Source: an uncultured Chloroflexia bacterium
Lineage (GTDB): Bacteria > Chloroflexota > Limnocylindria > Limnocylindrales > CSP1-4
Direction: 5' to 3'
Assembly: GCA_963768655.1 (NCBI GenBank)
Contig: CAVYIM010000004.1
Span: forward strand, 96,001-160,000
DNA length: 64,000 nucleotides
In this document: positions 1-19,185 of the stretch, in pieces
Layout of the letters: the number at the start of each line of letters is the position of its first letter
How positions within the stretch are numbered: position 1 is the stretch's first letter
The notes under the pieces: model-generated
The model's database searches: none
What the model was told of the DNA's origin: nothing
Seen by the model: the letters and a program-made list of their open reading frames with translations, nothing else
Made by a program: the position numbers and the translations under genes

Positions 1-779
1 TGCTGGCCCAGAGGAGCCGTTGCGGTCGGGCGCCCTCGTTCATGAGCCGCGCCCACCGATCGCCGTGGATCAGGGCCGCGTAGGCGTCGTAGGTCAGCTG
101 AGCCGTTGCGATGCCTAGCTTGAGATGGAGATCGGCCGGCAGGTCGCCGGCCAGCGGGCCGTCCCAGCGGCTGACGAAGACGGAGGCCACCGACGGCACG
201 TACGGATTCAGTCCGGCCTCGACGCGCCGTTCGATCGCCCGCGTGTAGGCCTCGGCGGCTGCCAGATACTGCTCGGTGGAAAAGAGCAGGGTCACGTTTA
301 CCGGCACGCCCGCGAAGATCGTCTCCTCGATTGCCTTCAGGCCCGCCGTGGTGCCGGGGATCTTGATGAAGAAGTTGGGGCGGGCGGCGAGAGCGTGGAG
401 CCTGGCGGCGTCGGCCGCCGTCGTCGCCGCGTCATCGGCCAGGAGGGGCGAGACCTCGAGCGACACGAAGCCGTCGACGCCGCCGGTCCGGTCGATACGT
501 CGGCCTGAAGAGGTCGGCCGCGCGCCGCAGGTCGTCCAGCGCCAGGTCGAAGAAGATCTCCTCGGTCCTGGTGCCGCCGGCAGATAGCCGCCGGATCTGC
601 TCGTCGTAGTCCGAGGAGCCGCCGATCGCCTTGTCGTAGATCGATGGGTTGGAGGTCAGGCCCGTCACCGAGAACTCGCGGATGTACTGCTCGAGCTTCC
701 CGCTGTCGAGCAGCGCTCGGGTGATGTTGTCGAGCCAGACGCTCTGCCCCATCCGTCCGAGCTTTGCGGTCCGGTGCAT
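1..779 (-). pseudogene. tal: Transaldolase, frameshifted by one extra base near 494-496; runs off the left edge
   Basis: The N-terminus has GQSVWLDNITR and GLTSNPSI. After ACG TAT there is one extra C (494). The shifted frame then reads DRTGGVDGFVSLEVSP...FIKIPGT (Schiff-base Lys)...VNVTLLFS...QRLLWAS up to the window edge. Confidence 0.85.
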
Positions 780-805
780 GGTGCCTCCAGTCTTGCGGCT
801 GGCTG

Positions 806-2080
806 TCAGCCGTTCAGTACGTCGCCGCGGAACGCGTCGGGATCCTGGAGCCTGCGGCGCAGCGCGTTCAGGAACCGGGCGGCGAGCTCGCCGTCGACGA
901 GCCGATGGTCGGCCGTCAGCGTCAGCTTCATTATCTGCCGGATGCCGATTCCATCCCCGACCGCGATGGGCGTGGGAACGACGCTTGAGACGGCCAGGAT
1001 CGCCGACTCGCCCGGATTGATGATCGCGCAGAACTCGTCGACGCCGAACATCCCCAGGTTCGAGATGGTGAACGTGCTGCCCGTCATGTCGTCGGGCGTG
1101 AGCGCCCCGTTGCGGGCCGCCTCGGCGAGCTCCGCAGCCCGCGCGTGCAGCTCGACGAGTGAGCGTCGATCGGCGTCGCGTACCACCGGCACGACGAGGC
1201 CATCGGGCAGCGCCACGGCCAGCCCGACGTGGACGCGGCGGCGAGGCCAGACCGAAACTCCGTCGGTACGCGAGTTTACGTCCGGGAACTCCACCAGCGT
1301 CTGCGCGGTGGCCGAAACGATGAAGTCGGTGACAGTGAGCAAGGTGCCGGCGGCCTTGAACTCGGTCCGAAGGGCCAGGACGCGCGTCATGTCGACGGCG
1401 ACCGTGACCGTGAACTGCGGGACCGTGGTCGCGCTGAGCGTGAGCCGCTGAGCGATTACGCGGCGCATCCGGCTCATCTGGCGCGGCGCCTCGTCTTCGG
1501 CGTCCGAGCCGTAGGTGGCCGGGGCCGCGGGGGCCACGGCGGGCGCTGCCGGGGCTGCCGACACCGGAGCCGCAGAGGCGGCCTCCAGCGCGGCGCGGAC
1601 GTCACGCTCGGTGATGCGGCCCTCCGGCCCGGTGCCGGTGATGGTCCGCGGATCGATTCCCGAGTCGGCGGCCAGCCGGCTGGCTCGCGGGCTGATACGC
1701 AGTCGGGAGCCGTCGGCCGGGGGCGTAGCTGACGGAGCCGGGGCAGCCGGAGCGGCCGGAACGGCAGCTTCAGCTTGCGCCACGACGGGCGGTACCGCCG
1801 CTCCAGCGGCCGCGGCCGTGGGAACGTCCGGGATCGGCTCGCCGGGCTCGCCGACGTAGCCGCACACCGTGTTGACCGGGACCGTCTGGCCCTCCTCGAC
1901 GACGCGCTTCAGCAGCACGCCCTTCTCGAAGGCCTCCACGTCCATGTTCGACTTGTCGGTCTCGATCTCGAAGAGCACCTCGCCCTTCTCGATCTTGTCG
2001 CCCTCGCGCTTGTGCCAGGCGACGAGAACGCACTCCTCGGTCATCTGGCCGGGCTTCGGCATTAGGATCGGATGAGCCAT
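806..2080 (-). CDS. Dihydrolipoamide acyltransferase (E2) of a 2-oxoacid/acetoin dehydrogenase-type complex
   Basis: Lipoyl domain (EIETDKSNMDVEA), Ala/Pro linker, peripheral subunit-binding motif (SPRASRLA...GTGPEGRITERDV) and catalytic DHRLVDG. Start set at ATG 2080 (MAHPILMPK). Confidence 0.93.
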   Translation of the reverse strand: MAHPILMPKPGQMTEECVLVAWHKREGDKIEKGEVLFEIETDKSNMDVEAFEKGVLLKRVVEEGQTVPVNTVCGYVGEPGEPIPDVPTAAAAGAAVPPVVAQAEAAVPAAPAAPAPSATPPADGSRLRISPRASRLAADSGIDPRTITGTGPEGRITERDVRAALEAASAAPVSAAPAAPAVAPAAPATYGSDAEDEAPRQMSRMRRVIAQRLTLSATTVPQFTVTVAVDMTRVLALRTEFKAAGTLLTVTDFIVSATAQTLVEFPDVNSRTDGVSVWPRRRVHVGLAVALPDGLVVPVVRDADRRSLVELHARAAELAEAARNGALTPDDMTGSTFTISNLGMFGVDEFCAIINPGESAILAVSSVVPTPIAVGDGIGIRQIMKLTLTADHRLVDGELAARFLNALRRRLQDPDAFRGDVLNG

Positions 2081-2114
2081 GGTGTCCCTCGCGGAGTCGG
2101 CGCGTGGCCTGGGT

Positions 2115-4481
2115 CTACAGTAGCGCGGCCACCGCCGCGTAGATGTCGTTGGCGTTCGGCAGGAAGGCCTTCTCGAGACCCTCGGCCTGGGGCGAGATGC
2201 CATTGGCGGCGCCGATCCGGCCGACCGGGGCGTCGAGGTAGTCGAAGGCTTCGAGCTGGATTCGGGCGACGATCTCGTTGACGAAGCTGCCGATGAGGAC
2301 AGCCTGGCTCGCCACGACGCAGCGCCCGGTCTTGCGAACGGAAGTCAGGACGGTTTCCATGTCGAGCGGGACGAGGCTGCGCAGGTCGACGACCTCCGTT
2401 TCGACGCCCTGTTCAGTCTTCAGTCGCTCCGCCGCCGCGAGCGCGTCGATGACCGCCGGACCCCAGGCGACGATGGTCGCGTCGGCGCCTTCGCGGATGA
2501 CCCGCGCGACGCCGAGCGGCTCGAGATAGTCGCCCTCGGGCACGATGCCCTTGGTGCCATACAGGCCCTGGCTCTCGACGAACAGGACCGGGTTGTTCGT
2601 CCGGATCGCCGACTTCAAGAGCCCTTTCGCGTCGGCAGGCGTGGCCGGGTAGACGACGTACAGGCCGGGGATGTGGGTGAAGACGCTCTCCAGCGACTGC
2701 GAGTGCTGGCCGCCGTAGCCCTTGCCGGCGCCCACGGAGGCTCGGATGACCAGAGGCACCTCGGTCTGGGCGCCCGACATGTAATGCCACTTGCCGGCCT
2801 GGTTGGCGATCTGGTCCGAAGCCATGAGCGCGAAGTCCATGTACATCAGCTCGACGACCGGGCGCAGCCCGACCATCGACGCGCCGACTGCCGTGCCGCA
2901 AATGCAGGCCTCGGAGATCGGCGTGTTGAAGACGCGTTCGCGACCGAATGCCTCGAGCAGGTCCTTGGTGAGCTTGAAGGCTCCGCCGTAGTCGGCCACG
3001 TCCTCGCCGTAGACCACGACGCGGCGGTCGCGCAGCATCTCCTCGACGAGCGCCTCGCGGAGCGCGTCCTTGTATGTGGTCACGCCGTTGGCGCGCTTGG
3101 CGACGGGTGGCGCGGCATACGTCACGACGGCGCCCTCCGGGTCCGGGACGATTTCCGCGGACGTGTCCGTGTAGAGGTACTTGAGCACGTCGGCCGGGGC
3201 CGGGTCCGTCGCCTTGGAGGCTCGCACGGCGGCGCGGGCGTTACGCTCGTGGGCCCGAGCCTCGATCGCGGCGAGCGTGGCCGCGTCGGCGACGCCGGCC
3301 GCGATCAGTTGGCCCTTGAGCCGCTCGATCGGGTCGACGGCCCGCCAGGCCGCTTCCTCCTCTCGGGTCCGGTACTCGTTGCGGGGGTCGGATAGGGAGT
3401 GGCCGTAGTAGCGGTATGTGCTCGCCTCGATGAGGACCGGACCGTGCCCCTCGCGGCAGATCGCCGCGGCCCGCTCGATAGCGTCGCGGACGGCCAGCAC
3501 GTCCATGCCGTTGACGGTCTCGGCGTACATGTTGTTCTGGGCGAAGCCGGCCGCACGGCGGGCCAGGTGGTTGACGCCCATTACTTCCTCGTCGGTCCGA
3601 TGGGTCATCCCGTAATGGTTGTTGACGATCAGGTAGATGACCGGCAGGCCGGCTGCGCGTGCACCGGCCAGGTGGTTGGTCCACTGCTCCTGGGCCGCCC
3701 AGTTGAGCGATTCGAGGACGACACCGTTGGCGTAGGCGCCGTCTCCGGCGAAGCAGCACACCACCTTGTCGGAGCCGCGGTAGCGGACAGCCATCGCCGC
3801 GCCCGTGGCGATCGGCACGCTGCCGCCGACGATCGCGTTCGCGCCCAGATGGCCGGTCGAGAAGTCGCCGATGTGCATGCCGCCGCCCCGTCCGCGGCAG
3901 TAGCCCTCTTCCTTGCCGAACAGCTCGGCGATGGTCTTGTAGACGTGCTCCTCGAGGGCGTCGGCGAGGAGGCCGTCATGGTCCCTGGCCTTCGACCAGG
4001 GCGCGCGGGCCCGCAGGGCGTCGTCGGACATCGCCCGGACCGCGGCGAAACCCTTGGCGATGGCGTCGCCGTGGCCGCGATGAGAGCTCGTGATATGGTC
4101 GTCGGGCCGCAGGGCGCCGCAGGCGCCGACGGACGTTGCCTCCTGGCCGATCGAGACGTGGGTCGGGCCGCGGTAGTCGTAGCCCGGCAGTGGGTCGTAG
4201 CCGCCCGAGCGGAGGCGGACGATCATCTCCTCCAGCTCGCGGATGGCCAGCATGTCGTCCAGCAGGTCGAGCGCCGACGCGGCGGTGACCCGCCCCGCGG
4301 CAATCTCGGAGCCGGCGTCGCCGGCGAAGTCGAAGCCGCGGATCGCGCCCAGGGACTCCTCGAACGGCGCAAGATCGGGTCGAGTGTCGCTCCTGTAGGC
4401 CGGCTCCGTGACCATGCTCTGAACCTCTTGCTCTGCTTTGGCTGTCGTCGTATTCATCGGTCTGGCCGTTGTCCTCTTCAT
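2115..4481 (-). CDS. ThDP-dependent dehydrogenase E1, fused alpha+beta subunits
   Basis: Alpha part: HRGHG, GRGGGMH, ThDP motif GDGA...NN, TYRYYGHS. Beta part: GEDV, NTPISE, VVELMYMDF, GGQHSQ, DLRSLVPLD. Start uncertain (ATG options down to MVTEP). Confidence 0.9.
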   Translation of the reverse strand: MKRTTARPMNTTTAKAEQEVQSMVTEPAYRSDTRPDLAPFEESLGAIRGFDFAGDAGSEIAAGRVTAASALDLLDDMLAIRELEEMIVRLRSGGYDPLPGYDYRGPTHVSIGQEATSVGACGALRPDDHITSSHRGHGDAIAKGFAAVRAMSDDALRARAPWSKARDHDGLLADALEEHVYKTIAELFGKEEGYCRGRGGGMHIGDFSTGHLGANAIVGGSVPIATGAAMAVRYRGSDKVVCCFAGDGAYANGVVLESLNWAAQEQWTNHLAGARAAGLPVIYLIVNNHYGMTHRTDEEVMGVNHLARRAAGFAQNNMYAETVNGMDVLAVRDAIERAAAICREGHGPVLIEASTYRYYGHSLSDPRNEYRTREEEAAWRAVDPIERLKGQLIAAGVADAATLAAIEARAHERNARAAVRASKATDPAPADVLKYLYTDTSAEIVPDPEGAVVTYAAPPVAKRANGVTTYKDALREALVEEMLRDRRVVVYGEDVADYGGAFKLTKDLLEAFGRERVFNTPISEACICGTAVGASMVGLRPVVELMYMDFALMASDQIANQAGKWHYMSGAQTEVPLVIRASVGAGKGYGGQHSQSLESVFTHIPGLYVVYPATPADAKGLLKSAIRTNNPVLFVESQGLYGTKGIVPEGDYLEPLGVARVIREGADATIVAWGPAVIDALAAAERLKTEQGVETEVVDLRSLVPLDMETVLTSVRKTGRCVVASQAVLIGSFVNEIVARIQLEAFDYLDAPVGRIGAANGISPQAEGLEKAFLPNANDIYAAVAALL

Positions 4482-5464
4482 GCGGCGAGGAGCAGCCTGG
4501 CCGCTTCCTCATCTGTGATCAATCGATGGATGAGCCCGCTGCGGAGGGCCGCCAGGATCGCGGGCGCCTTGGCAGCGCCGCCGGCAATCGCCGTGACATC
4601 CGGGACGGCTCTCAGTTGCTCCGGGCTGATGGCAATGAAGCGGCCGGGCAACCCGGCGGCTCTCACCTCCGCGCCGTTCGCGTCGAGGACGGTCGAGCAG
4701 ATGTCCGCCACCGCACCGGCCGCGTCGAGCGCCGCAGCGATCTCCTCGGGCAGCGCCGCCCGAACGGTCGACCCACTGGCCGTCCACGCGCCGATGCCGA
4801 CCACGGCCTTCGTGAGGCGATCGAACATGGCGATGGTCCTGTGGACGTGCGGGTCGGCCCGGAGAGCCGAGGCCATCTCCGGGCTGTCGACCAGCAACGG
4901 CACGTAGAGCGGATACACGGGGCCGCCGGCGCAGTCGGCCACACGCCGAACGAGCTCCATAGAGTTGACGTCGAGCTCGAGCGTCGGAACGCTGCCCACG
5001 ATCTGGACGACCGTGCAGCCGGGCAGCCTGGCAAGGTGCCCGACCATCGAGTGGAGCGTCCGGCCCCACGAGATCCCGAGGACGTCGTCCGCCTCGAGGG
5101 TTTGCGTCAGCAGCTCCGCGCAGGTCCGGCCGAGCTGCTCCCTCTTGAACTCCTCGGGTCCGTCGATCGGCCGGACGACGATCGCATCCACGAGGCCGTG
5201 CCGCGCGGCGAGTTCGCCGGAGAGCTCCAGATCGATCTCGGGGGGTGCTCCGACCTCGATTCGCACGATCCCATCGCGGCGCGCGGCGTCGAGCAGGCGG
5301 GCGACCTTGAAGCGCGAGATCCCAAGTTCCTGGGCGATCTCGCTCTTGCTCGCGCCGTCCAGGAAGTAGCGTCGCGCAACGAGCACGGTCGTCACCACCT
5401 GGAGGCGCGTGGCGCGTCCTTCAGATCGGGCCAGCGGGTTCATCTGCTCCTCGTTCTCTGCCAC
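4478..5464 (-). CDS. SorC/DeoR-family sugar-binding transcriptional regulator
   Basis: N-terminal HTH (ARRYFLDGASKSEIAQELGISRFKVARLL) and sugar-binding domain (GISWGRTL, AVVGIG, AGGAAKAPAI, LITDE). Confidence 0.92.
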   Translation of the reverse strand: MAENEEQMNPLARSEGRATRLQVVTTVLVARRYFLDGASKSEIAQELGISRFKVARLLDAARRDGIVRIEVGAPPEIDLELSGELAARHGLVDAIVVRPIDGPEEFKREQLGRTCAELLTQTLEADDVLGISWGRTLHSMVGHLARLPGCTVVQIVGSVPTLELDVNSMELVRRVADCAGGPVYPLYVPLLVDSPEMASALRADPHVHRTIAMFDRLTKAVVGIGAWTASGSTVRAALPEEIAAALDAAGAVADICSTVLDANGAEVRAAGLPGRFIAISPEQLRAVPDVTAIAGGAAKAPAILAALRSGLIHRLITDEEAARLLLAA

Positions 5465-5526
5465 CCGGCGGCACCGAGAGGTTCTTTCGGCCGCCTCGAC
5501 GAGCGCGGCGAAGCCATCCTAGCATT

Positions 5527-5559
5527 CTCACATCTGAGCGGCAAGCGCTCAAACGAGCG
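5527..5559. promoter_or_regulatory. Two short palindromes in the divergent promoter; candidate SorC-family operators
   Basis: CTCA-catc-TGAG (5527-5538) and CGCTC-aaac-GAGCG (5546-5559) lie upstream of the regulator. Confidence 0.4.
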
Positions 5560-5866
5560 CCGACGTCACGACACTCAGAACTGGGCCGGCGGCGAGGGCC
5601 GCCGCCCGGACCGTGCGACCGAGGCGGTGGGCGCCTCCGTCTGACGTGGCACCTGGCTACCGAAGTTTGTGGCTTGATAGCCGACTCGCGGGCACGTAAC
5701 ATGGGACCCGCCGGCAACTAATCGTAAAGAGCCGAAACTAAATGGAAGTAGCCGAAAGAAAGCGCCCAGAAAGAGCCACGCAGGCTCGCCTCCGTCGTCG
5801 GCCTTGAAGACGGGGAGCACGCGCCGGCGGCGCCGGTCGAAGGGAAAGGTGTACGACAGTCCTCGC

Positions 5867-7090
5867 GTGAGCGGCGACTGGAAGGCCCGATCGGAACGAC
5901 CGATCGTCAATACACACGTCCACTTGCCGCCCAACTTCTCGGCGTTCGATACTGCCGAACAGGCGGTTCGGATCGCCGCTGCCGAAGGAGTCGCGGTCCT
6001 CGGAAGCTCCAACTACTACGACTTCGGCGTCTATCGGTCCTTCGCGGCCGCAGCGGCCGCAGCGGGAATGGTGCCCCTCTTCGGCGTGGAGATCATCACG
6101 CTCATCGGCGACCTGCCGGCCGGCGGCTCGCTCATCAACGATCCGACCAATCTCAACCGGATGTACCTGTGCGGCAAGGCGCTGAACCGTCTCGACCCGC
6201 CGGTCGTTTCGGCCGCGCGTCGCATGGCCGCGATCCGTGCAGTCAGCGAAGACCGCATGCGCCAGATGACCGCACTCGTCGCGGCTCGCTTCGAGCAGGC
6301 CGGTCTGGACGGGGGCGTGACCGACAAGCAGATTGCGGCATCGGTGGCGCAGCGATGCGGCGTCCCGATCGAGTGGGTGTCGCTGCAGGAACGACACCTG
6401 GCGCAGGCATTCCAGGAACTGCTCTTCCGGGACGTCGAGCCGGGCGGCCGGGCTGCCGCGCTGGGCCGGTTGTTCGAGGCGCCGACGAGTGTCGACACGG
6501 CCGATGCGATCGCCGTCCAGGAGGCGGTCCGCTCGAACTTGATGAAGGCCGGCAGGCCGGCGTTCGTGCCCGAGGCGGCCATCTCGTTCGAGGACGCCTA
6601 CCGGCTGATTCTCGAGCTGGGCGGCATCCCCTGCTACCCGATCCTCGCCGACGGCGCAGCGCCGATCTGCACCTTCGAGCAACCGGCCGAGGCACTGGCA
6701 GAGCGGCTGCTCGGTCGCGGCGTCTACTGCGCCGAGCTGATCCCCGGGCGAAACCGGCCCGAAGTCGTCGATCGCTACGTGACCGTGCTCCGCAGCGCCG
6801 GAATCGTCATCATGGCGGGCACGGAACACAACACGAAACGAATGCTCCCGGTCGCGCCGACGGCGTTGGGCGGCGAACAGCTGTCCGACCTGGCGCGCGA
6901 GGCCTTCTGGGAGGGCACCTGCGTCGTGGCGGCACATCAACATCTCCGCGCATCCGGCCGTCCCGGCTACGTTGATGACGATGGGCGGCCGATTGCCGGG
7001 TTCGCCGACGGTGAAGCGCGCATCCGATGGTTCCGCGAGGCCGGCGCCGACCTCATCACTACTCGATTCGCTGCGAGGGCCCAAGCTTGA
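5867..7090 (+). CDS. PHP-domain-like metal-dependent hydrolase of unknown function
   Basis: N-terminal NTHVH (HxH), GVEI and C-terminal GTEHN resemble the PHP fold. Its stop overlaps the next gene's TTG. Start uncertain (5804, 5849 or 5867). Confidence 0.65.
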   Translation: MSGDWKARSERPIVNTHVHLPPNFSAFDTAEQAVRIAAAEGVAVLGSSNYYDFGVYRSFAAAAAAAGMVPLFGVEIITLIGDLPAGGSLINDPTNLNRMYLCGKALNRLDPPVVSAARRMAAIRAVSEDRMRQMTALVAARFEQAGLDGGVTDKQIAASVAQRCGVPIEWVSLQERHLAQAFQELLFRDVEPGGRAAALGRLFEAPTSVDTADAIAVQEAVRSNLMKAGRPAFVPEAAISFEDAYRLILELGGIPCYPILADGAAPICTFEQPAEALAERLLGRGVYCAELIPGRNRPEVVDRYVTVLRSAGIVIMAGTEHNTKRMLPVAPTALGGEQLSDLAREAFWEGTCVVAAHQHLRASGRPGYVDDDGRPIAGFADGEARIRWFREAGADLITTRFAARAQA

Positions 7091-9135
7091 ACACCCAATC
7101 CACGCCGGAGGGGCGGTCCGTCGTCGAAGCCCTTCTGAACGACACGATCGCGCTCTCGCACCGGTTCGGCGCGGACCCGGAGTACACGCGCGGCGGCGGC
7201 GGCAACATCTCGGTCAAGGCCGACGGGGTCCTGTACATCAAGCCGAGCGGCACGTCTCTCGCGACGCTGACGGCGGAGTCGGTCATCGCCCTCGATGTCC
7301 GGCCGCTGCTGGAGCTCCTCAACGCATCGCCGGATCTCCCGGTCGAGCCCGGCACGGATCTGGTCATGCAAGTAGCCATGGGTGCCCGCCTCGGCGCGCG
7401 TGACGATCGACGCCCGTCCGTCGAATCCCTGTTTCACGCGCTTCTACCGGAGCGATTCGTGCTCCATACGCATCCGACGATCGTCAATGCCGTGACGTGT
7501 GCGACCCACGGGGCCGAGATCGTCGAGCGGCTGTTCGGCGCGGACGCCTTGTGGGTTCCCTACACCGATCCCGGGCTGCCCCTCGCCCGCGCCATCCGCG
7601 ACGCGAGGAAGAGTCACGAAGAAGGGATGGGGAAGTCCGCGCCCCGGGCGATCTTCCTCCAGAATCACGGCCTGATCGTCGCCGCCGACTCGACTGCGGA
7701 GATCGACGAGGCGTCCGCCCGGCTGATCGCGGTGATTCGGGCTCATCTGGCGGAGCTGCCGGCCATCTCGTGGGGCAAGGCCGAGCGACTGGAGGCCAGC
7801 CGGGCCCGGGCGGCGTTGCGTGCCGTCGGTCCTGCGTTGCGGGCGCTCCTGGCCACGGGCGATCGGCTCAAGGTCGTCACTTTCGACGACTCGCCGCTCT
7901 CCGTATCGATGGCCGGTTCGGCGCTGGGGCGGGAATTCGCGCTCGGCGGTCCGCTTACGCCCGACCAGATCGTGTACACCGGCTCGTTCCCTCTCCTCCT
8001 GGAAACTCCTGCCGGCGCGACGCCGGACCTCCTCGTCGATGCGCTGGCCGGCGCGATCGCCGCGCGGGCGGCGACCGATGCCGGGGCGCCGGCCGTCATC
8101 CTGGTGCCGGGGCTCGGGCTGTTCGCGGCAGGCGATTCGGCCGCCCAGGCCGAGATGGTCCAGCAGGTCTTCCTAGACGCCGTCGCCGTGTCGGTTGATG
8201 CCCACCGCCTCGGCGGGGTCAAACCGCTCGCCGACTCGGAGCGCCGGTTCATCGAGCGCTGGGAGGCCGAGGACTATCGCCGCCGCGTTGCCGTCGGCCG
8301 GTCAGTCGCCGGCCGGGCGAGAGGCCTGGTCGTCGTGGTAACCGGCGCAGCCCAGGGCTTCGGGCATGCGATCGCGGCCGACCTCGTATCCCAGGGCGGC
8401 CACGTCGTGCTGGCCGACATCAACGTCGAGCTGGCGCGGCACCAGGCGGAGGCTCTCGCGTCCGAGTTCGGTTCCGGGCGAGCCGTCGGCGTCGCGCTGG
8501 ACGTCACCGACGACGCGTCGGTTGCGGCCTGCTTCGACGAGGTCGTGCGCCGTTTCGGTGGGCTCGATCTTCTCGTCTCGAACGCCGGAATCCTCCGAGC
8601 CGGCAGCGTCACGACCCAGCCCGTCGCGGAGTTCGACGCCGTCACGCGCGTCAACTACCGGGGCTATTTCCTGTGCGTCCGGCACGCGGCGCCCATCCTG
8701 GCCCGCCAGCATAGGGCGCGGCCGACCTACTGGGGCGACATCATCGAGATCAACTCGAAGTCCGGCCTGGCCGGCTCGAGCCGAAACAGCGCCTACTCCG
8801 GCAGCAAGTTCGGCGGCGTTGGCCTGACGCAGTCGTTCGCCCTGGAGCTTGTCGGAGATGGCATCAAGGTCAACGCCATCTGCCCGGGCAACTTCCTCGA
8901 AGGGCCGCTCTGGGCCGATCCGGAGAACGGCCTCTTCGTGCAGTACTTGCGCGAGGGCAAGGTGCCCGGTGCGAAGAGCATCGACGACGTGCGCCGGTTC
9001 TACGAAGCGAAGGTGCCGATGGGTCGTGGCTGCACTCCGGCCGATGTCCTCGAGGCCCTCTACTATGTCGTTGCCCAGCGGTACGAAACAGGGCAGGCCA
9101 TTCCGGTCACCGGCGGCCAGGTGATGCTGAAGTAG
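7087..9135 (+). CDS. Bifunctional class II aldolase-like domain + SDR (sorbitol-6-phosphate dehydrogenase SrlD/SorD-like)
   Basis: Aldolase part: GGGNISVK, KPSG, PSVE, HTH, QNHGL. SDR part: TGAAQGFG, NAG, INSKSG, YSGSKFGGVGLTQS, KVPMGRGC, TGQAIPVTGGQVM. The TTG start overlaps the upstream TGA (TTGA). Confidence 0.85.
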   Translation: MNTQSTPEGRSVVEALLNDTIALSHRFGADPEYTRGGGGNISVKADGVLYIKPSGTSLATLTAESVIALDVRPLLELLNASPDLPVEPGTDLVMQVAMGARLGARDDRRPSVESLFHALLPERFVLHTHPTIVNAVTCATHGAEIVERLFGADALWVPYTDPGLPLARAIRDARKSHEEGMGKSAPRAIFLQNHGLIVAADSTAEIDEASARLIAVIRAHLAELPAISWGKAERLEASRARAALRAVGPALRALLATGDRLKVVTFDDSPLSVSMAGSALGREFALGGPLTPDQIVYTGSFPLLLETPAGATPDLLVDALAGAIAARAATDAGAPAVILVPGLGLFAAGDSAAQAEMVQQVFLDAVAVSVDAHRLGGVKPLADSERRFIERWEAEDYRRRVAVGRSVAGRARGLVVVVTGAAQGFGHAIAADLVSQGGHVVLADINVELARHQAEALASEFGSGRAVGVALDVTDDASVAACFDEVVRRFGGLDLLVSNAGILRAGSVTTQPVAEFDAVTRVNYRGYFLCVRHAAPILARQHRARPTYWGDIIEINSKSGLAGSSRNSAYSGSKFGGVGLTQSFALELVGDGIKVNAICPGNFLEGPLWADPENGLFVQYLREGKVPGAKSIDDVRRFYEAKVPMGRGCTPADVLEALYYVVAQRYETGQAIPVTGGQVMLK

Positions 9136-10862
9136 TGAGGAGCGCAAGAGTGACCGGAGGGGAGCCGAAAGAGCGGCCCATTCCCGCCACCCAGCACGCG
9201 ATCCAGATCGTCGACGCCGGCCGGACCGTCCACAACCGCGGGAAGGTTGTGCCGCGGCCCGGGCCGTACCAGGTCCTCGTTCGGATGGAGGCGTGCGGGA
9301 TCTGCTTCTCCGACACGAAGCTCCTCCACGCCTTCACGAGCCATCCCCGCAAGAGCGAGGTTCTCTCGGGACTCGACGCAACCGTGCTGGCCGAGATCCC
9401 GTCGTACGTGCCCGGCCGGCTGCCGACGGTCCCCGGCCACGAGCCCGTCGGACGCATCGTCGCCGTCGGCGATCGGGTGCGCCGCCATCGCGTCGGCGAA
9501 CGGTGCCTGATCCAGACCGACTACCGGCACCTTCCGACGGCGGCCGCGAACGCGGCCTTCGGCTACAACTTCGAAGGCGGGCTCCAGGAGTACGTCCTGC
9601 TCGACGAGCGGATGATCGTCGAGCCCGGGACCGATGAGCGGTTCCTCATCTCCGTCGGCGAGGAGCCGAGCGCATCGGCGGTTGCCCTGGTCGAGCCGTG
9701 GGCGTGCGTCGAAGCCTCGTACGTGTTCCGAGAGCGGCGCGGCCCGCTGCCGGGCGGCCGCCTGCTCGTCGTCGCGGACGCGGGCCACGAGATGGATGGA
9801 ATTGCGGCGCTGCTCGATCAGGCCCGGCCGGCGGTTCTGGCTGTGATGGCCGACGCTGCCGGAAGTCGAGCGCTGAACGCGGCCGGCCTCACTGTGACGA
9901 GCGTCCGCGATCTGGCGGCCGCTCCCCGCCAGGCGTTCGACGACGTTGTGTACTTCGGCGCCGATGCCGCCACGATCGAGGCGCTCCAGGACTGCCTCGC
10001 GTTCCGGGGCCTCATGAATGTCGTGACCGGTGGAGTCGCGATCGGCCGGCCGGTCGCGCTCGACGTCGGCCGCGTCCATTACGACCTCACCCGCTGGACG
10101 GGGACGACGGGCGCCTCGTCGACCGAGGGGTACGCGACCATCCCGGTCGACGGCGAGGTCCGCGCCGGGGATCGCATGGCCGTGATCGGGGCCGCCGGTC
10201 CGATGGGTCTCATGCACGTCGTCCGAGCCGCCTCGGCTGGCCTGCCCGGCCTTTCGATCGCCGCCATCGACATCGACGACGCCCGTCTGGCCAACCTCGA
10301 GCGGGCGGCCGGGCCGATCGCCCGATCGCGCGGGGTCGAGCTGACGGCGGTCAACTCCCAGACCGCCGAGGTCAATCCGGGATTCAGCTACGTCGCGCTG
10401 ATGGTGCCGGCGCCGGCGCTCGTGGGCCAGGCGCTCTCGCTCGCGGGCTCGGGCTGCCGGATCAACATCTTCGCCGGCTTCGCGACCGGGACCAGGGCGG
10501 CCATCGACTTCGACCGCTATCTCGAGCGGCGCTGCCACTTCCTCGGCACGAGCGGCTCGGGGATCCGTGACATGAAGGCAGTCCTCCGCAGGGTCGAGGC
10601 CGGCGAGCTCGACACGAACATCTCGCTCGACGCGGTGACCGGCTTCGAAGGAGTCGCCGATGCGCTGGCGGCTGTCGAGGGCCGAACCGCCGCGGGCAAG
10701 ATCATGGTCTATCCGTCTCTGCCGGACCTCGGGCTGGTGCGTCTCTCCGAGCTGGGCGAGCAATTCCCGAGCGTCGCCGCCGCGCTAGACGATGGCCGCT
10801 GGACGAAGGCGGCCGAGCAGGAGCTGCTGGCTCTGGCCGGCCGGTCCGGGGTGTCGTCGTGA
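9135..10862 (+). CDS. Elongated MDR-family reductase, L-sorbose-1-phosphate reductase (SorE)-like
   Basis: CFSDTK, GHE, LVEPWAC, IGAAGPMG, NIFAG, GTSG, KIMVYP and WTKAAEQELL follow the SorE motif order. It is 575 aa and lacks the structural-Zn Cys cluster. Confidence 0.7.
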   Translation: MRSARVTGGEPKERPIPATQHAIQIVDAGRTVHNRGKVVPRPGPYQVLVRMEACGICFSDTKLLHAFTSHPRKSEVLSGLDATVLAEIPSYVPGRLPTVPGHEPVGRIVAVGDRVRRHRVGERCLIQTDYRHLPTAAANAAFGYNFEGGLQEYVLLDERMIVEPGTDERFLISVGEEPSASAVALVEPWACVEASYVFRERRGPLPGGRLLVVADAGHEMDGIAALLDQARPAVLAVMADAAGSRALNAAGLTVTSVRDLAAAPRQAFDDVVYFGADAATIEALQDCLAFRGLMNVVTGGVAIGRPVALDVGRVHYDLTRWTGTTGASSTEGYATIPVDGEVRAGDRMAVIGAAGPMGLMHVVRAASAGLPGLSIAAIDIDDARLANLERAAGPIARSRGVELTAVNSQTAEVNPGFSYVALMVPAPALVGQALSLAGSGCRINIFAGFATGTRAAIDFDRYLERRCHFLGTSGSGIRDMKAVLRRVEAGELDTNISLDAVTGFEGVADALAAVEGRTAAGKIMVYPSLPDLGLVRLSELGEQFPSVAAALDDGRWTKAAEQELLALAGRSGVSS

Positions 10863-11866
10863 AGTCGCTCCGGTTGTTCGGGCCCGGCGATCTGCGTCTC
10901 GTGGACGAGGCCGCGCCGCTACCCGGCCCGGGCGACGAGCTCGTTCGTGTGACCGCGGTCGGCATATGCGGCTCCGATCTCCACTGGTACGCGGAGTCTG
11001 GGATCGGCGACACGAAGCTCTCCCGGCCCACCGTCCTGGGTCACGAGGCCGCCGGCGTGATCGAGTCGGGTCCGCGCGCCGGTCAACGGGTCGCGATCGA
11101 TCCAGCCATTCCGTGCGAGACGTGCGAGCAATGTCGTGCCGGCCACACCCATCTCTGTCTCCGCCTGCGTTTCGCCGGCGACGGCACCACCGACGGCTTC
11201 CTGCGTGAGCTGGTGGCCTGGCCGGAGGCGAGCCTGGTTCCCGTGCCCGACAACCTGAGCGAGGCCGACGCCGCGATGCTCGAGCCGCTCGGCGTGGCGC
11301 TCCATGCGGTCAGGCTGGCCCAGATCCGGCCCGGGGAGCGGGTCGGCGTGTTCGGCTGCGGCCCGATCGGGCAATTCCTGATCCAGCTCGCCCGCGCATC
11401 CGGAGCCACGACGATCGTCGCCACGGACGTGCTGCCGCATCGCCTGGCGGCCGCCCGCGCGTCCGGCGCGACCGCCGCGGCTCTCGTGGCCGGCGGCTCG
11501 GAGCGTGTGGAGCTCCGCGCGGCGACCGGCGGGCACGGGGTGGACGTCGCCTTCGAGGCTGCCGGCGTAGACGATTCGGTCGAGACCTCCGTCGCCCTCG
11601 CGGCGCCGGGCGGCACGGTCGTCGTCGTCGGCATTCCCTCCGGAGATCACACCACCTTCACGGCCTCCACGGCTCGCCGCAAGGGTCTCACCATCAAGCT
11701 GTCGCGCCGCATGAACCGGGTCTACCCGGAGGCCATCCGTCTCGTCGAGGCAGGGCTGGTCGACGTTCGATCGGTCGTGACCGCGAGTCACCCTTTAGGC
11801 GAGTACAGGACCGCGTTCGCGGGCGCCGCCGGGCGGGACGGCTTGAAGGTCGTCATCCGGCCGTAG
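10859..11866 (+). CDS. Zn-dependent polyol (sorbitol/L-iditol-type) dehydrogenase
   Basis: GICGSDLH, GHE, CxxCxxCx7C structural Zn site, EPLGV and GCGPIG. The GTG start overlaps the upstream stop. Confidence 0.88.
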   Translation: MKSLRLFGPGDLRLVDEAAPLPGPGDELVRVTAVGICGSDLHWYAESGIGDTKLSRPTVLGHEAAGVIESGPRAGQRVAIDPAIPCETCEQCRAGHTHLCLRLRFAGDGTTDGFLRELVAWPEASLVPVPDNLSEADAAMLEPLGVALHAVRLAQIRPGERVGVFGCGPIGQFLIQLARASGATTIVATDVLPHRLAAARASGATAAALVAGGSERVELRAATGGHGVDVAFEAAGVDDSVETSVALAAPGGTVVVVGIPSGDHTTFTASTARRKGLTIKLSRRMNRVYPEAIRLVEAGLVDVRSVVTASHPLGEYRTAFAGAAGRDGLKVVIRP

Positions 11867-15207: not shown

Positions 15208-16962
15208 CTACCGCCGGTAGGTCGCGCGAGGCCGGTAGCTGGTGTGGAGCAGTTCCTCGGACTTCTCGCCGAGCGGCTCGCCCAGGAAGTCCTCGTACAG
15301 TTTCTGGATGTACGGGTTCTCGTGGGCGCAGCGCCACAGGCCGGACTGGTCGTCCTGGTAGAGCCCCGCGGCCCGCTTGGCCCGCAGGTTGTCCGTGACG
15401 CCGTACGGCTGGCCGCCGCCGCCGACGCAGCCGCCGGGGCAGGCCATGACTTCGATGAAGTGATAGGGCGGCTCGGTGCCAGCGTCGCGCGCCTGGCGCA
15501 CCTTCGTCAGCACAGTCTCGACGTTGCCCAGGCCGTGGGCTACGGCGAACCGCACCTCTTGCCCCGCAATGTCGACCTTGCCCTCCTTGACACCGTCCAG
15601 GCCGCGCGTCTTGAGGAACTCGAGGCGGGCCGGGTTCTCGCCGGTCATCAGGTAGTAGGAGGTCCGCAGTGCGGCTTCCATCACGCCGCCCGTCGCGCCG
15701 AAGATCGTCCCGGCGCCCGTGTAGGCACCCAGCAGATGATCGGGCTGCTCCTCGGCGAGGGCGCGGAAGTTGATGCCCGACTGTTTGATCATGCGAGCCA
15801 GCTCGCGGGTGGTCAGCGAGACGTCGACGTCCCAGAACCCCGACGAATGCATCTCCTTGGATCGAATGATCTCGAACTTCTTGGCCGTGCAGGGCATGAC
15901 CGAGACGACGTACACCCTGGCGGGGTCGAGCCCCATCTTCTCCGCGTAGTAGGTCTTCGCCAGGGCGCCGACCATCGCCTGCGGGGACTTGCAGGACGAG
16001 AAGTGGGGGATCATGTCGTCGTGGAACTTCTCCATGAAGTCCACCCACGACGGGCAGCACGTCGTGATCAGCGGCAGGACGGCTTTCGCGGTGGTGAAGC
16101 GCCCGACGAACTCGTGGGCCTCTTCCATGACCGTCAGGTCGGCCCCGAAGTTCGTGTCGAAGACGGCCTTGAAGCCCATCCGCCGGAGGGCGGCGTAGGT
16201 CTTGCCGGTGAGGTTCGTCCCGACCGGGAAGCCGAAGGCCTCGCCGATGGCGACTCGGACGGCCGGCGCCAGCTGTGCGACGCAGAAGGCGTCCGGGTCC
16301 AGGAGCTTGTCCCACACGTCCTGGGTCTCGTCGTACTCGACGATGGCGCCGGTCGGGCAGTGGGCCGAGCACTGGCCGCAGCGGACGCACGGTGAGTCGG
16401 CCAGGCTGATGTCGCCGGCGGCGGCGATGCGGGTGTCGATGCCGCGCTGGAGGAAGCTGAGCGCCCACACGTCCTGGATCTGCTGGCAGACCTGGATGCA
16501 GCGGCCGCAGGTTATGCACTTGCGCGGGTCCAGAGTGATGGCGCGGGTCGAGTTGTCGATCGGCAGGTCGGGAACGATGCTGTCCAGGCAGATCTCGCGC
16601 AGGCCGAAGTCGGCGGCGATCGTCTGCAGCTCGCAGTTCTGGTTCCGGCCGCAGGTCAGGCACTCGTTGGGGTGGCGCGACAGGATCATCTCCACTACGG
16701 TGCGGCGGACCTGGATGATCTCCGGGTCTTCCGTGGTGATCTCCATGTCCGGCTCGACCGGCGTGCAGCAGGCGCGCAGCATCTTGTTCGAGCCGGCGAC
16801 GCGGACGATGCAGATGCCGCAGGCGGCCGTGGCCTCGAGGTCGGGGTGCTTGCACAGGGTCGGGATGTGGACGGAAACCTGGCGCGCCGCGTCGAGGATG
16901 GTGGCGCCCGGTGCGACCTCGACCGGCAGGTTGTTGATCGTGGCTTGGATCATCTCGGTCAC
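15208..16962 (-). CDS. hydA: [FeFe]-hydrogenase catalytic subunit (group A, multi-FeS)
   Basis: H-cluster motifs TTCCPSW, MPCTAKKFE and EVMACPGGCVGGGGQP. N-terminal [2Fe-2S], HxxxCxxCx5C and two CxxCxxCxxxC clusters. Start is GTG 16962 or ATG 16953. Confidence 0.96.
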   Translation of the reverse strand: MTEMIQATINNLPVEVAPGATILDAARQVSVHIPTLCKHPDLEATAACGICIVRVAGSNKMLRACCTPVEPDMEITTEDPEIIQVRRTVVEMILSRHPNECLTCGRNQNCELQTIAADFGLREICLDSIVPDLPIDNSTRAITLDPRKCITCGRCIQVCQQIQDVWALSFLQRGIDTRIAAAGDISLADSPCVRCGQCSAHCPTGAIVEYDETQDVWDKLLDPDAFCVAQLAPAVRVAIGEAFGFPVGTNLTGKTYAALRRMGFKAVFDTNFGADLTVMEEAHEFVGRFTTAKAVLPLITTCCPSWVDFMEKFHDDMIPHFSSCKSPQAMVGALAKTYYAEKMGLDPARVYVVSVMPCTAKKFEIIRSKEMHSSGFWDVDVSLTTRELARMIKQSGINFRALAEEQPDHLLGAYTGAGTIFGATGGVMEAALRTSYYLMTGENPARLEFLKTRGLDGVKEGKVDIAGQEVRFAVAHGLGNVETVLTKVRQARDAGTEPPYHFIEVMACPGGCVGGGGQPYGVTDNLRAKRAAGLYQDDQSGLWRCAHENPYIQKLYEDFLGEPLGEKSEELLHTSYRPRATYRR

Positions 16963-16976
16963 GGCTGGCACCCGGC

Positions 16977-18629: not shown

Positions 18630-18630
18630 G

Positions 18631-19185
18631 TCACGCTTTCCCGTCTTCGGCCGTGGTGGGCGTCAGCAGGTGAGCCTCGAGGGACTCGCCCGTCACCTTG
18701 GCAAGCAGCTTCTCGTTCACCGTCACGACCGGCGCCAGGCCGCAGCACCCCACGCACCGGACGATCTGCAGGTGGAACTCGCCGTCGGCGGTGGTCTCTC
18801 CGGGTTTGATGCCCAGCTCCTCCGAGGCCCTGGCGAGAAGCTGGGGCGCGCCCTTGAGGTAGCAGGCCGTGCCCATGCACACCGAGACGACGTGCTTGCC
18901 GGGCGACTTCAGCCGGAAGTAGTTGTAGAAGGTCAGGACCTCGTAGATGCGCGCCAGCGGCACGTCCATCTGTTCGCCGAGGCTCATCGCGGCTTCGCGC
19001 GGCACGTAACCGTACCTGTCCTGGAGCCCGTGAAGGGCCATGATCAGGCTGCCGCGCTTGTTCTTCCAGCGTTTGGCGATTGCCGCAACGTCGTCTTCGG
19101 TCTTGGTTGGGCTCAAGTCGGTCTCCGCCTTGGTGCTCGTGGAGCAGTCTCGTTCGGTGCGCGCGGCAGCGGGGGTGTTGTCCAC
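18631..19185 (-). CDS. hydC: NuoE-like [2Fe-2S] hydrogenase subunit
   Basis: LQDRYGYVP, VLTFYNYF and CMGTAC...CVGCCGLAP. The real gene is the 3' third of the 565-aa track ORF; the rest is antisense to rho. GTG start inferred. Confidence 0.9.
   Translation of the reverse strand: MDNTPAAARTERDCSTSTKAETDLSPTKTEDDVAAIAKRWKNKRGSLIMALHGLQDRYGYVPREAAMSLGEQMDVPLARIYEVLTFYNYFRLKSPGKHVVSVCMGTACYLKGAPQLLARASEELGIKPGETTADGEFHLQIVRCVGCCGLAPVVTVNEKLLAKVTGESLEAHLLTPTTAEDGKA

Follow-up and report, generated by a model that had tools for sequence, protein, structure and literature searches.

A gene cluster of Limnocylindria and other bacteria that seems to extend L-rhamnose catabolism through a pyruvate-dehydrogenase-like complex

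Introduction

L-Lactaldehyde, the distinctive product of 6-deoxyhexose breakdown, is toxic, and its known fates are lactate, 1,2-propanediol and, inside microcompartments, lactyl-CoA. This report concerns two divergent operons at the start of a 64,000-nt stretch of DNA (hereafter the window; contig C4, positions 96001-160000) from a soil member of the Limnocylindria (Chloroflexota). The part analysed, positions 1-11866, joins a pyruvate dehydrogenase (PDH)-like complex to sugar-metabolizing enzymes; judged by gene content and neighbourhood, it seems to represent a conserved, undescribed variant that extends L-rhamnose catabolism by way of that complex.

One way to place these operons is to begin with the described systems that come closest to them. 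In the first, RhaEW has been shown experimentally to be a rhamnulose-1-phosphate aldolase/lactaldehyde dehydrogenase, and the operator of the DeoR-family regulator RhaR of Chloroflexus aurantiacus consists of four tandem TCGAAA sites within 38 bp, confirmed by electrophoretic mobility shift assay (PMC3870299). A second lies in the rhamnose locus of Caldicellulosiruptor bescii: Athe_0702-4 is an acetoin-dehydrogenase-like enzyme predicted to take L-lactaldehyde (Rodionov et al. 2021, PMC8579813); this is a prediction only, and the authors list the enzyme as functionally unassigned (PMC8579813). For microcompartments, a conversion of lactaldehyde to lactyl-CoA is discussed in connection with the pvm operon (PMC11958385).

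The two operons

Open reading frame (ORF) listing, filtering by G+C content at third codon positions and Pfam and NCBIfam family scans give the following map, in which every gene named in a preliminary description of the sequence is present at about the position assigned to it there.

1..779, minus strand, running off the window start: transaldolase gene, actinobacterial-type, about 362 codons, with TAL_FSA and NF002881 matches on both of its pieces
806..2080, minus strand: E2 dihydrolipoyl acyltransferase, 424 aa (PF00364, PF02817, PF00198)
2115..4481, minus strand: fused E1 alpha-beta protein, thiamine diphosphate (ThDP)-dependent, 788 aa (PF00676, PF02779, PF02780)
4478..5464, minus strand: SorC/DeoR(Bacillus)-type sugar-binding transcriptional regulator (PF04198, 201.9 bits)
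5465..5848, no strand: divergent control region, 384 bp, with promoter-like site, hexamer array and ribosome-binding site
5849..7090, plus strand: PHP-fold metal-dependent protein, 413 aa, without Pfam or NCBIfam match, with a fold match to PHP phosphoesterases
7087..9135, plus strand: fusion of a class II aldolase and a classical short-chain dehydrogenase/reductase (SDR), RhaEW-like (PF00596, PF00106)
9135..10862, plus strand: long zinc-dependent medium-chain dehydrogenase/reductase (MDR), 575 aa, polyol/secondary-alcohol type (ADH_N, ADH_zinc_N_2)
10859..11866, plus strand: zinc-dependent MDR, 335 aa, threonine/idonate/sorbitol dehydrogenase-like (ADH_N, ADH_zinc_N)

The minus-strand genes are called here the left arm and the plus-strand genes the right arm; the PHP-fold, aldolase/SDR and long-MDR genes together are the module. 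The genome (3.37 Mb in 9 contigs, 68.7% G+C) is that of a Limnocylindria bacterium, and homologs named by source come from Candidatus Limnocylindrales and other Chloroflexota metagenome-assembled genomes (MAGs).

Recurrence of the cluster in other phyla

A pattern scan of 185,579 species genomes yielded 282 confirmed relatives of the PHP-fold protein. From these the 80 best loci were taken and searched with all window proteins by tblastn; ORFs were then clustered, and recurrent neighbours were scanned against Pfam and NCBIfam. At more than 60% coverage, the aldolase/SDR fusion is found in 50 of the 80 loci, the long MDR in 49, the 335-aa MDR in 41, E1 and E2 in 24 each, SorC in 18, transaldolase in 12-13 and pyrG, the unrelated next gene downstream of the right arm, in 6. 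Dihydrolipoyl dehydrogenase (E3) is adjacent in eight (Planctomycetota and some others). Looser thresholds put the whole module in 58 loci. Among these, 27 have at least one rha gene, and in 28 E1/E2 lie within 10 kb; either feature is present in 45 and both in 10. When only the 43 module loci of at least 15 kb are counted, the figures are 26 with a rha gene, 21 with E1/E2 and 37 with either. The loci with E1 alpha-beta and E2 (sometimes E3) beside the module come from four phyla, Chloroflexota, Planctomycetota, Acidobacteriota and Actinomycetota, in differing gene orders. The co-occurrence of the two arms in other genomes, which the preliminary description had called for, is thus borne out: the arrangement recurs in many genomes of several phyla and is more than chance.

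The orders themselves differ between lineages. Limnocylindria close to the window keep its divergent layout, and one locus of a genome of the same genus (G122) carries aldolase/SDR, PHP, rhaB, rhaI, ABC transporter genes, rhaM, a rhaD-like gene, SorC, E1 and E2. Phycisphaerae, Anaerohalosphaeraceae and one Acidobacteriota MAG have E1(-) DeoR(-) E2(+) E3(+) PHP, aldolase/SDR, long MDR; the Anaerohalosphaeraceae locus reads E1-DeoR-E2-E3-PHP-MDR-aldolase/SDR-RhaB and stands beside RhaA, RhaT and an alpha-L-rhamnosidase. An Acidimicrobiaceae MAG has everything in a single co-directional run: rhaSTPQ-like genes, rhaI, rhaB, PHP, aldolase/SDR, long MDR, E2 and an unfused E1.

The genes conserved beside the module are those of L-rhamnose catabolism: rhaI/rhaA, rhaB, rhaM and a transporter. 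Recurrent neighbours are the isomerase RhaI, a rhamnulokinase, an L-rhamnose mutarotase, an RhaS-type binding protein with CUT2 ATP-binding cassette (ABC) components, a RhaD-like aldolase, which in many loci lies directly upstream of PHP, and a DeoR regulator. One Planctomycetota locus has RhaA instead of RhaI, and a few loci add FucI, a PfkB kinase, LacI, RhaT or an alpha-L-rhamnosidase. RhaI scores 646 bits with TIGR02635, above the cut-off of 531; the rhamnulokinase (429 bits), RhaS (322.6) and RhaM (76.9) all score below theirs. Genes of a phosphotransferase system (PTS) are absent from the window part and from the related loci examined.

The preliminary description had proposed sorbose-type enzymes acting on a rare hexose or hexitol. 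With rhamnose genes as the conserved neighbours of the module, this reading is rejected; no model specific for sorbose enzymes is among the NCBIfam matches listed. The link that it drew between sugar redox enzymes and a ThDP/lipoyl complex is real and conserved; the sugar was wrong, and so were the functions taken to be missing. Family scans of positions 1-11866 find, as it had remarked, no PTS, kinase or E3 gene, and hence no complete E1-E2-E3 locus. It saw no kinase, transporter or E3 because these genes lie on contigs C3 and C5. The rha genes of this genome occupy contig C3, 526665-536711 (mutarotase, isomerase, kinase, RhaD-like aldolase, ABC transporter and DeoR regulator). The sole E3 lies at contig C5, 212562-212888, near LipA and unlinked to the window E1/E2. 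The surrounding segment (contig C5, 209783-214000) contains this E3, the lipoyl synthase LipA and a second E2, whose lipoyl/E3-binding part is in another frame than its catalytic part; a second E1 to pair with this E2 was not found.

Within the class, the pattern was followed in an even sample of 151 genomes. The sample includes seven unpublished genomes (G106, G096, G091, G067, G112, G123 and G087), none positive for PHP, long-MDR ortholog, RhaI or E1 ortholog, which enter only the denominators and the count of any E1 match. Some E1-like match is present in 140 of the 151. PHP occurs in nine, and long-MDR orthologs (at least 61% identity) in exactly the same nine; the fused E1 ortholog (at least 74% identity) occurs in 17, among them all nine PHP genomes, and RhaI in 15, including eight of the nine. 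Of the 10 genomes in the window's own genus, 5 combine PHP, long MDR and E1; the other five, 91-94% complete, have no PHP, no long MDR and no E1 match of any kind at E<=1e-20. As these five lack both the module and any E1, E1 is accessory there, not housekeeping.

Two genomes without PHP carry other genes directly upstream of the orthologous E1-E2. In G015 (locus L098, 9870-11390) this is a calcineurin-like metallophosphoesterase, possibly a non-homologous substitute for PHP; in G080 (locus L099, 5122-6222) it is an MDR.

The E1 proteins and their relatives

The window E1 is of the alpha/beta type (E1_dh 193 bits, Transket_pyr 149, Transketolase_C 110), with its ThDP-binding motif GDG...NN intact (GDGAYANG...VNN). 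In E2, a lipoyl domain, an E3-binding domain and a catalytic domain are present, and its ETDK lipoyl-lysine and DHRLVDG motifs are intact. No other PF00676 gene was found in the genome, which also has four POR_N genes resembling pyruvate:ferredoxin oxidoreductase (PFOR). Score-based comparison brings the protein close to PDH without placing it there: it misses the PDH E1 equivalog cut-offs (TIGR03182, 269 against 393.85; NF008854, 361 against 454), and the only PDH-type E1 model that it passes is the subfamily model NF006667 (358, cut-off 321). Among solved structures its alpha part is closest to PDH E1 alpha, with 151 bits to human PDHA and 68 bits to branched-chain 2-oxoacid dehydrogenase (BCKDH).

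Separate quick maximum-likelihood trees were made for the alpha and beta parts of E1, with the SH-like approximate likelihood ratio test (SH-aLRT) as the only support measure. Reference rows came from annotated plasmid records: aco of Klebsiella and Acinetobacter, PDH of Staphylococcus aureus and Sinorhizobium meliloti, and BCKDH of Rhizobium. Further rows were Cupriavidus pdhAB-like, Azospirillum E1, Nitratireductor E1, fused Fuscovulum E1, class paralogs and metagenome sequences. Matching segments shorter than 200 aa (alpha) or 250 aa (beta) were dropped, as were beta rows below 30% identity, the latter being the transketolase-like subunits L097_5252 and L098_11797; the filter removed the fragmented L038 copy, the L110 beta part and the L056 alpha part. 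Both trees contain a 22-row clade (SH-aLRT 96 for alpha, 99 for beta) that unites the Limnocylindria E1 with E1s resembling those of the Planctomycetes-Verrucomicrobia-Chlamydiae (PVC) group from metagenomes and with the rha-linked E1s of Planctomycetota, Acidobacteriota and Actinomycetota. All named references lie outside: the S. meliloti and S. aureus PDH rows, BCKDH, the others, and the two aco references, which are Klebsiella and Acinetobacter sequences, neither Firmicute nor Pelobacter. On the trees that the preliminary description had called for, this E1 joins none of the PDH, BCKDH or acetoin-dehydrogenase references included. In the alignment of the alpha domain, an insertion of about 40 aa marks all 16 clade rows present and is missing from the references. 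Among the 120 alpha-domain matches listed there is no Caldicellulosiruptor protein.

A metagenome scan centred on E1, with PVC-like E1 alpha sequences as query, whose fused E1s are up to 67% identical to the window E1, gave 80 loci. Anything from the module appears in only L119, L143 and L148 (aldolase/SDR-like) and L152 (long-MDR-like), with a RhaB-like gene in L125. L119 runs long MDR-SDR-E1-E2, with a stand-alone SDR; in L122 a DeoC/LacD-family aldolase and an SDR diverge from DeoR-E1-E2-E3. A 333-aa protein beside DeoR-E1 in L122 was considered as a PHP relative and ruled out (hhalign probability 0.1). The best plasmid match of the E1, from Nitratireductor thuwali (L107), stands beside deoC, an aldehyde dehydrogenase, FucU and a sugar ABC transporter. 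What recurs is this type of E1/E2 under a DeoR/SorC regulator, in the company of a sugar-phosphate aldolase and at least one dehydrogenase; PHP and the long MDR are a tighter pair, specific to the rhamnose-linked version.

The proteins of the right arm

The right arm is translationally coupled, as had been described, with small corrections of the starts. The aldolase/SDR gene most likely begins at TTG 7087, overlapping the PHP stop (7088-7090); the long MDR begins at GTG 9135, overlapping the TAG stop at 9133-9135; and the 335-aa MDR begins at GTG 10859, overlapping the TGA at 10860-10862. In the left arm, the SorC stop and the E1 start form ATGA at 4478-4481, and E2 starts at ATG 2080 (not 2203), behind a GAGGGA site and 33 nt past the E1 stop. 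The SorC protein itself scores below the cut-offs of NF053881 and of the LsrR models.

The PHP-fold protein has no Pfam hit at E<=0.001 and no NCBIfam hit. A fold search was needed because a PDB profile search with the family gave only E=0.9 (3e0f). The AlphaFold model, built on 35 sequences (predicted local distance difference test, pLDDT, 90.1), finds 2yb1, 9etk and 3e0f/3o0f as its top Foldseek matches in the PDB (E 4.6e-10 to 6.8e-09, target template-modelling score about 0.7), so that the label 'PHP-like' of the preliminary description holds at the level of fold. The protein carries an N-terminal NTHVHLPPNFSAF motif and an AGTEHNT motif. Its family is large, with at least 2018 homologs among 8000 scored candidates, and conserved, with cross-phylum identity of 47-52%; in the ESM Atlas clusters of the family, PF02811 is assigned to 12% of members. 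The HxH motif, E81, H327 and H363 are invariant, and so are several Asn residues, N29, N55 and N97/N101, which we take, from mapping by eye, to occupy canonical PHP metal-binding Asp/His positions. With Asn at several presumed metal-ligand positions, a non-hydrolytic role is possible.

The aldolase part of the fusion has its motifs intact (GGGN, KPSG, E...H, HTH and NHG), and so has the SDR part (TGAAQGFG for TGxxxGxG, NAG and YxxxK). Domain layout and motifs are those of RhaEW; the scores fall short of the RhaEW equivalog cut-offs (TIGR02632, 323.9 against 567.75; NF006189, 262.6 against 634). The fusion is thus RhaEW-like, not a sorbose-operon enzyme, by its TIGR02632 score and by comparison with the enzyme of PMC3870299.

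Both MDRs have the zinc ligands (Cys, His-Glu, Glu) and the GxGxxG NAD site of the polyol dehydrogenase branch. The long MDR has an extra domain of about 140-200 aa between its catalytic and Rossmann domains, with C57, H102-E103, E187 and GAAGPMG invariant. Its model (pLDDT 86.9) has as best folds Bacillus subtilis (2R,3R)-butanediol dehydrogenase, RspB and threonine/sorbitol dehydrogenases, nearly tied. The 335-aa MDR has a GHE motif, a structural-zinc Cys cluster and GCGPIG, and its best NCBIfam matches are all below cut-off.

The control region

One promoter-like site is found at 5674-5702 on the plus strand, compared with 0.0 expected in shuffled sequence. Downstream lie two 20-nt direct repeats (5716-5755), which resolve into four NCGWAA-like hexamers at 10-bp spacing (5722-5757) in the AT-rich PHP leader, and an AAGGGA ribosome-binding site precedes the GTG at 5849. 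Promoter, repeats and ribosome-binding site are kept in an alignment of 10 relatives, and the four-site array is unique in the genome. The array is a candidate operator for a DeoR/SorC repressor; its resemblance to the RhaR operator fits a rhamnose regulon and is not proof of one. An operator shared with the rha locus was also considered and is kept only as a hint: no second copy of the 20-mer from the PHP leader occurs in the genome at up to 4 mismatches, and the 12-mer core has three genome hits, the number that base composition predicts, one of which is in the rhaI/deoR intergenic region.

Transaldolase and surrounding genes

The transaldolase gene is split by one extra base near 495, which 6/6 relatives do not have (a 1-nt gap in blastn) and which the preliminary description had not noticed. 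Three-frame translation against the intact ortholog of locus L002 puts the N-terminal frame at 432-779 and the C-terminal frame from about 466-655 to C4 position -307. Either the gene is a pseudogene or the assembly is in error; assembly indels are plausible because the second E2, on contig C5, also reads in two frames. Six sequencing runs contain only 5-6% of the sampled words, and none with RNA turned up.

Upstream of the window (L001, 14043-17527), an EamA transporter, a HAD phosphatase and myo-inositol-1-phosphate synthase (Ino1) converge on the transaldolase gene, and further upstream are a transketolase, RpiB and a PGI-like gene. A link to inositol was dropped, as the Ino1-HAD-EamA genes converge on transaldolase and are kept only in close relatives. 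On the other side, a [FeFe]-hydrogenase large subunit with ferredoxin-like domains adjoins a Nuo51/NuoF-like flavoprotein (window 15208-18662, minus strand); the pair suggests that the organism lives anaerobically or facultatively so. Near 25574-26113 there is a POR_N (PFOR-like) gene.

A possible branch of 6-deoxyhexose catabolism

The reading we prefer, with belief and doubt about evenly balanced, is that the two divergent operons form an accessory branch of 6-deoxyhexose (L-rhamnose) catabolism, in which a lactaldehyde-derived C3 fragment would be carried to acetyl-CoA. L-Rhamnose would be taken up, isomerized and phosphorylated by the products of the contig C3 genes; rhamnulose-1-phosphate would be split to dihydroxyacetone phosphate (DHAP) and L-lactaldehyde by the RhaD-like enzyme, the aldolase domain or both; the SDR domain and the two zinc-dependent MDRs would oxidize the C3 fragment, lactaldehyde going by way of lactate or methylglyoxal to pyruvate or a related methyl ketone; and E1 alpha-beta and E2, with the unlinked E3, would turn that product into acetyl-CoA and NADH. 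The PHP-fold protein, which has no fixed place in the route, might contribute a phosphoester hydrolysis or a metal-dependent isomerization step. DeoR/SorC-type repressors probably hold expression off through the tandem hexamer array in the PHP leader.

Several observations weigh against this account. From the side of E1, PHP has no homolog in any of the 80 E1-centred metagenome loci, many of them on short contigs, and the usual locus there is DeoR-E1-E2-E3 alone. Eight of the 17 class genomes with the E1 ortholog have no PHP, long MDR or RhaI detectable with these queries; in the four of the eight that were inspected, E1/E2 stand beside DeoR or GntR, transaldolase and a split-transketolase subunit. 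From the side of rhamnose, 7 of the 15 RhaI-positive class genomes have neither PHP nor the E1 ortholog; rhamnose catabolism can thus do without the module. From the side of the enzymes, the aldolase/SDR fusion, the RhaD-like protein and both MDRs fall below every NCBIfam equivalog cut-off; we know of no MDR that acts as a lactate dehydrogenase; and, given the PFOR-like genes, a route that forms pyruvate does not obviously need a private PDH. The trees contain few characterized references, with B. subtilis and Pelobacter AcoAB and the C. bescii genes absent. Finally, the PHP homologs of Armatimonadota have only unrelated genes around them.

These Armatimonadota homologs (L048, L057, L061, L073, L081 and others; about 50% identity) lie near DsbD, VanW, a pyrroloquinoline quinone (PQQ) dehydrogenase, nadC and PRAI, and no conserved partner was found in their loci; nadC also adjoins the module in the Phycisphaerales locus L075. 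The PHP-fold family may have a role outside rhamnose clusters.

A second perspective, bolder and in our judgement doubtful, supposes that the E1 clade is not a 2-oxoacid dehydrogenase at all. It would be a sugar-catabolic cleavage system, acting on an alpha-hydroxy carbonyl compound derived from 6-deoxyhexoses and passing a C2 or C3 acyl unit to CoA. The substrate could be L-lactaldehyde, hydroxyacetone, methylglyoxal hydrate or a 5-keto-6-deoxy-ketose phosphate, and the PHP-fold enzyme and the domain-inserted zinc-dependent MDR could prepare it. If so, lipoyl-dependent complexes would gain a new class of reaction, and deoxy-sugars would have a new route to acyl-CoA.

A third perspective, which we consider unlikely, keeps the arms functionally separate: the right arm would serve a rhamnose/fucose side pathway, and the left arm would be the organism's PDH, together with a pentose-phosphate gene, placed under sugar-responsive regulators; only a shared carbon-catabolic island would keep the two arms together. 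The structural and NCBIfam scores nearest to PDH speak for it, as does the fact that the window E1 is the only one in the genome; so do the E1-ortholog genomes without the module, the absence of PHP from the E1-centred loci, and neighbours such as transaldolase and transketolase-like genes, which suggest central metabolism. Against it, E1/E2 are found next to the module in four phyla, and three gene orders occur, one a single co-directional run; five genus-mates manage without any E1 and without the module, so that E1 is not housekeeping there; the regulators beside E1 are always of SorC or DeoR type (but GntR stands beside some module-less E1/E2); the clade is apart from the S. meliloti and S. 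aureus PDH references; and PFOR-like genes are present.

A fourth perspective looks to acetoin dehydrogenase. A zinc-dependent MDR would make a CH3-CO-CHOH- group, from the 6-deoxy end of rhamnulose(-1-phosphate) or from a 1-deoxy-ketose derived from hydroxyacetone; E1/E2 would cleave this to acetyl-CoA and a C4 aldose(-phosphate), which would enter the pentose-phosphate pathway through transaldolase/transketolase; and the PHP protein and the aldolase-like domain would trim phosphate or stereochemistry. Two MDRs and an SDR beside E1/E2(/E3) do mirror butanediol/acetoin clusters such as the Acinetobacter aco locus, and the best fold match of the long MDR is a butanediol dehydrogenase. The E1 clade, with its own insertion, differs from the 2-oxoacid dehydrogenase references; in this bacterial family E1/E2 are accompanied by transaldolase, a split transketolase subunit or both, whether or not the module is present; and a route from lactaldehyde to pyruvate would need fewer dehydrogenases than are encoded. 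We nevertheless regard this scheme as rather improbable. The separate RhaD-like aldolase upstream of PHP and the intact class II aldolase motifs argue for DHAP and lactaldehyde; the transaldolase gene is frameshifted in this genome, and the clusters of other phyla have none; E1 stands apart from the two aco references; the top fold matches of the long MDR are nearly tied; and to our knowledge no ThDP/lipoyl complex carries out such a sugar cleavage. The preliminary description had offered a related scheme. Oxidative cleavage of a ketose by E1/E2 is possible; nothing supports glycolyl-CoA specifically as its product, and the proposed recycling by transaldolase is not supported, the gene being frameshifted here and tied to E1/E2 only within this bacterial family.

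The weakest alternative, and a very unlikely one, is that E1/E2 act directly on L-lactaldehyde to give lactyl-CoA, or acetaldehyde and a formyl unit, in place of the aldehyde dehydrogenase that works in the Planctomycetes-Verrucomicrobia microcompartment: neither the SDR domain nor either MDR would then have a role, and we know of no ThDP/lipoyl complex whose physiological substrate is an aldehyde. What speaks for it is the published prediction for C. bescii Athe_0702-4 (PMC8579813), the lactyl-CoA chemistry discussed for microcompartments with the pvm operon (PMC11958385), and the repeated pairing of E1/E2 with an aldehyde-releasing aldolase, of class II here, of the DeoC/LacD family in L122 and encoded by deoC on the Nitratireductor plasmid.

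On the preferred reading, that of an accessory branch of rhamnose catabolism, the cluster would point to a further, widespread solution to the lactaldehyde problem in soil and peat Chloroflexota, Planctomycetota, Acidobacteriota and Actinomycetota, one that would have recruited a private ThDP/lipoyl complex, a PHP-fold family of thousands of members without a Pfam match and an unusual long MDR. Should the substrate of E1 be something other than pyruvate, the chemistry of complexes of the 2-oxoacid dehydrogenase type would be extended; even if it is pyruvate, three unannotated protein families would gain a functional context. Models of carbon flow for uncultured peatland bacteria would improve.

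Comparison with known systems

The enteric sor operon was the comparison drawn in the preliminary description. It shares a SorC-family regulator and zinc-dependent and SDR sugar dehydrogenases with the window, a likeness at superfamily level only; there is no PTS here, and the neighbours are rhamnose genes.

The PHP phosphoesterases, represented by the 3',5'-nucleotide bisphosphate phosphatase of Cv1693 type (2yb1), RNase AM (9etk) and BAD_1165 (3e0f), have the same fold, the N-terminal HxH and the conserved Glu and His residues. The window protein differs in having no Pfam PHP match, in being about 130 residues longer, with a helical insertion, and in its sugar-operon context.

PDH with heterotetrameric E1 (S. 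meliloti pdhAB, L198; S. aureus pdhAB, L103; human PDH E1) has the same domains and cofactor motifs, and gives the best sequence scores. The window E1 lies outside the PDH groups, is accessory within its genus, stands under SorC/DeoR regulators and has its E3 unlinked. The aco operons (Klebsiella michiganensis, L101; Acinetobacter variabilis, L106) likewise have E1 alpha/beta, E2 and E3, beside an SDR and an MDR secondary-alcohol dehydrogenase, and acetyl-CoA is the predicted product in both systems; the E1 of the window is fused, has its own insertion and groups apart, and its context is deoxy-sugar genes, not butanediol genes.

Athe_0702-4 of C. bescii resembles the window system in that a ThDP/lipoyl-type dehydrogenase is tied to rhamnose genes, in a DeoR-regulated locus (PMC8579813). 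The enzyme there is described as having three subunits, whereas E1 is fused here; the passages on the C. bescii rhamnose locus mention neither a PHP-fold protein nor a long MDR (PMC8579813). The full-text literature, the supplementary tables of PMC8579813 and PMC3870299 aside, yielded nothing on PHP-fold or long-MDR genes in rhamnose clusters. Nor did it yield a tested E1/E2 reaction with deoxy-sugar products: the only precedent found is the prediction in PMC8579813, which, as the one related statement in the sources at hand, leaves the pathway undescribed, as the preliminary description had held.

There remains the RhaEW rhamnose pathway (B. subtilis yuxG, C. aurantiacus Caur_2283; Rodionova et al. 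2013, PMC3870299). Both systems have a class II aldolase-SDR fusion, and both associate with rhaI/rhaA, rhaB, rhaM, a CUT2 ABC transporter and a DeoR-family regulator; the tandem hexamer array of the window resembles the RhaR site. The differences are that the window fusion scores below the equivalog cut-off and that such fusions often co-occur with a separate RhaD-like aldolase. Moreover, a PHP-fold protein precedes the fusion, a long MDR follows it, and E1/E2(/E3) frequently join them, none of which belongs to the pathway as described.

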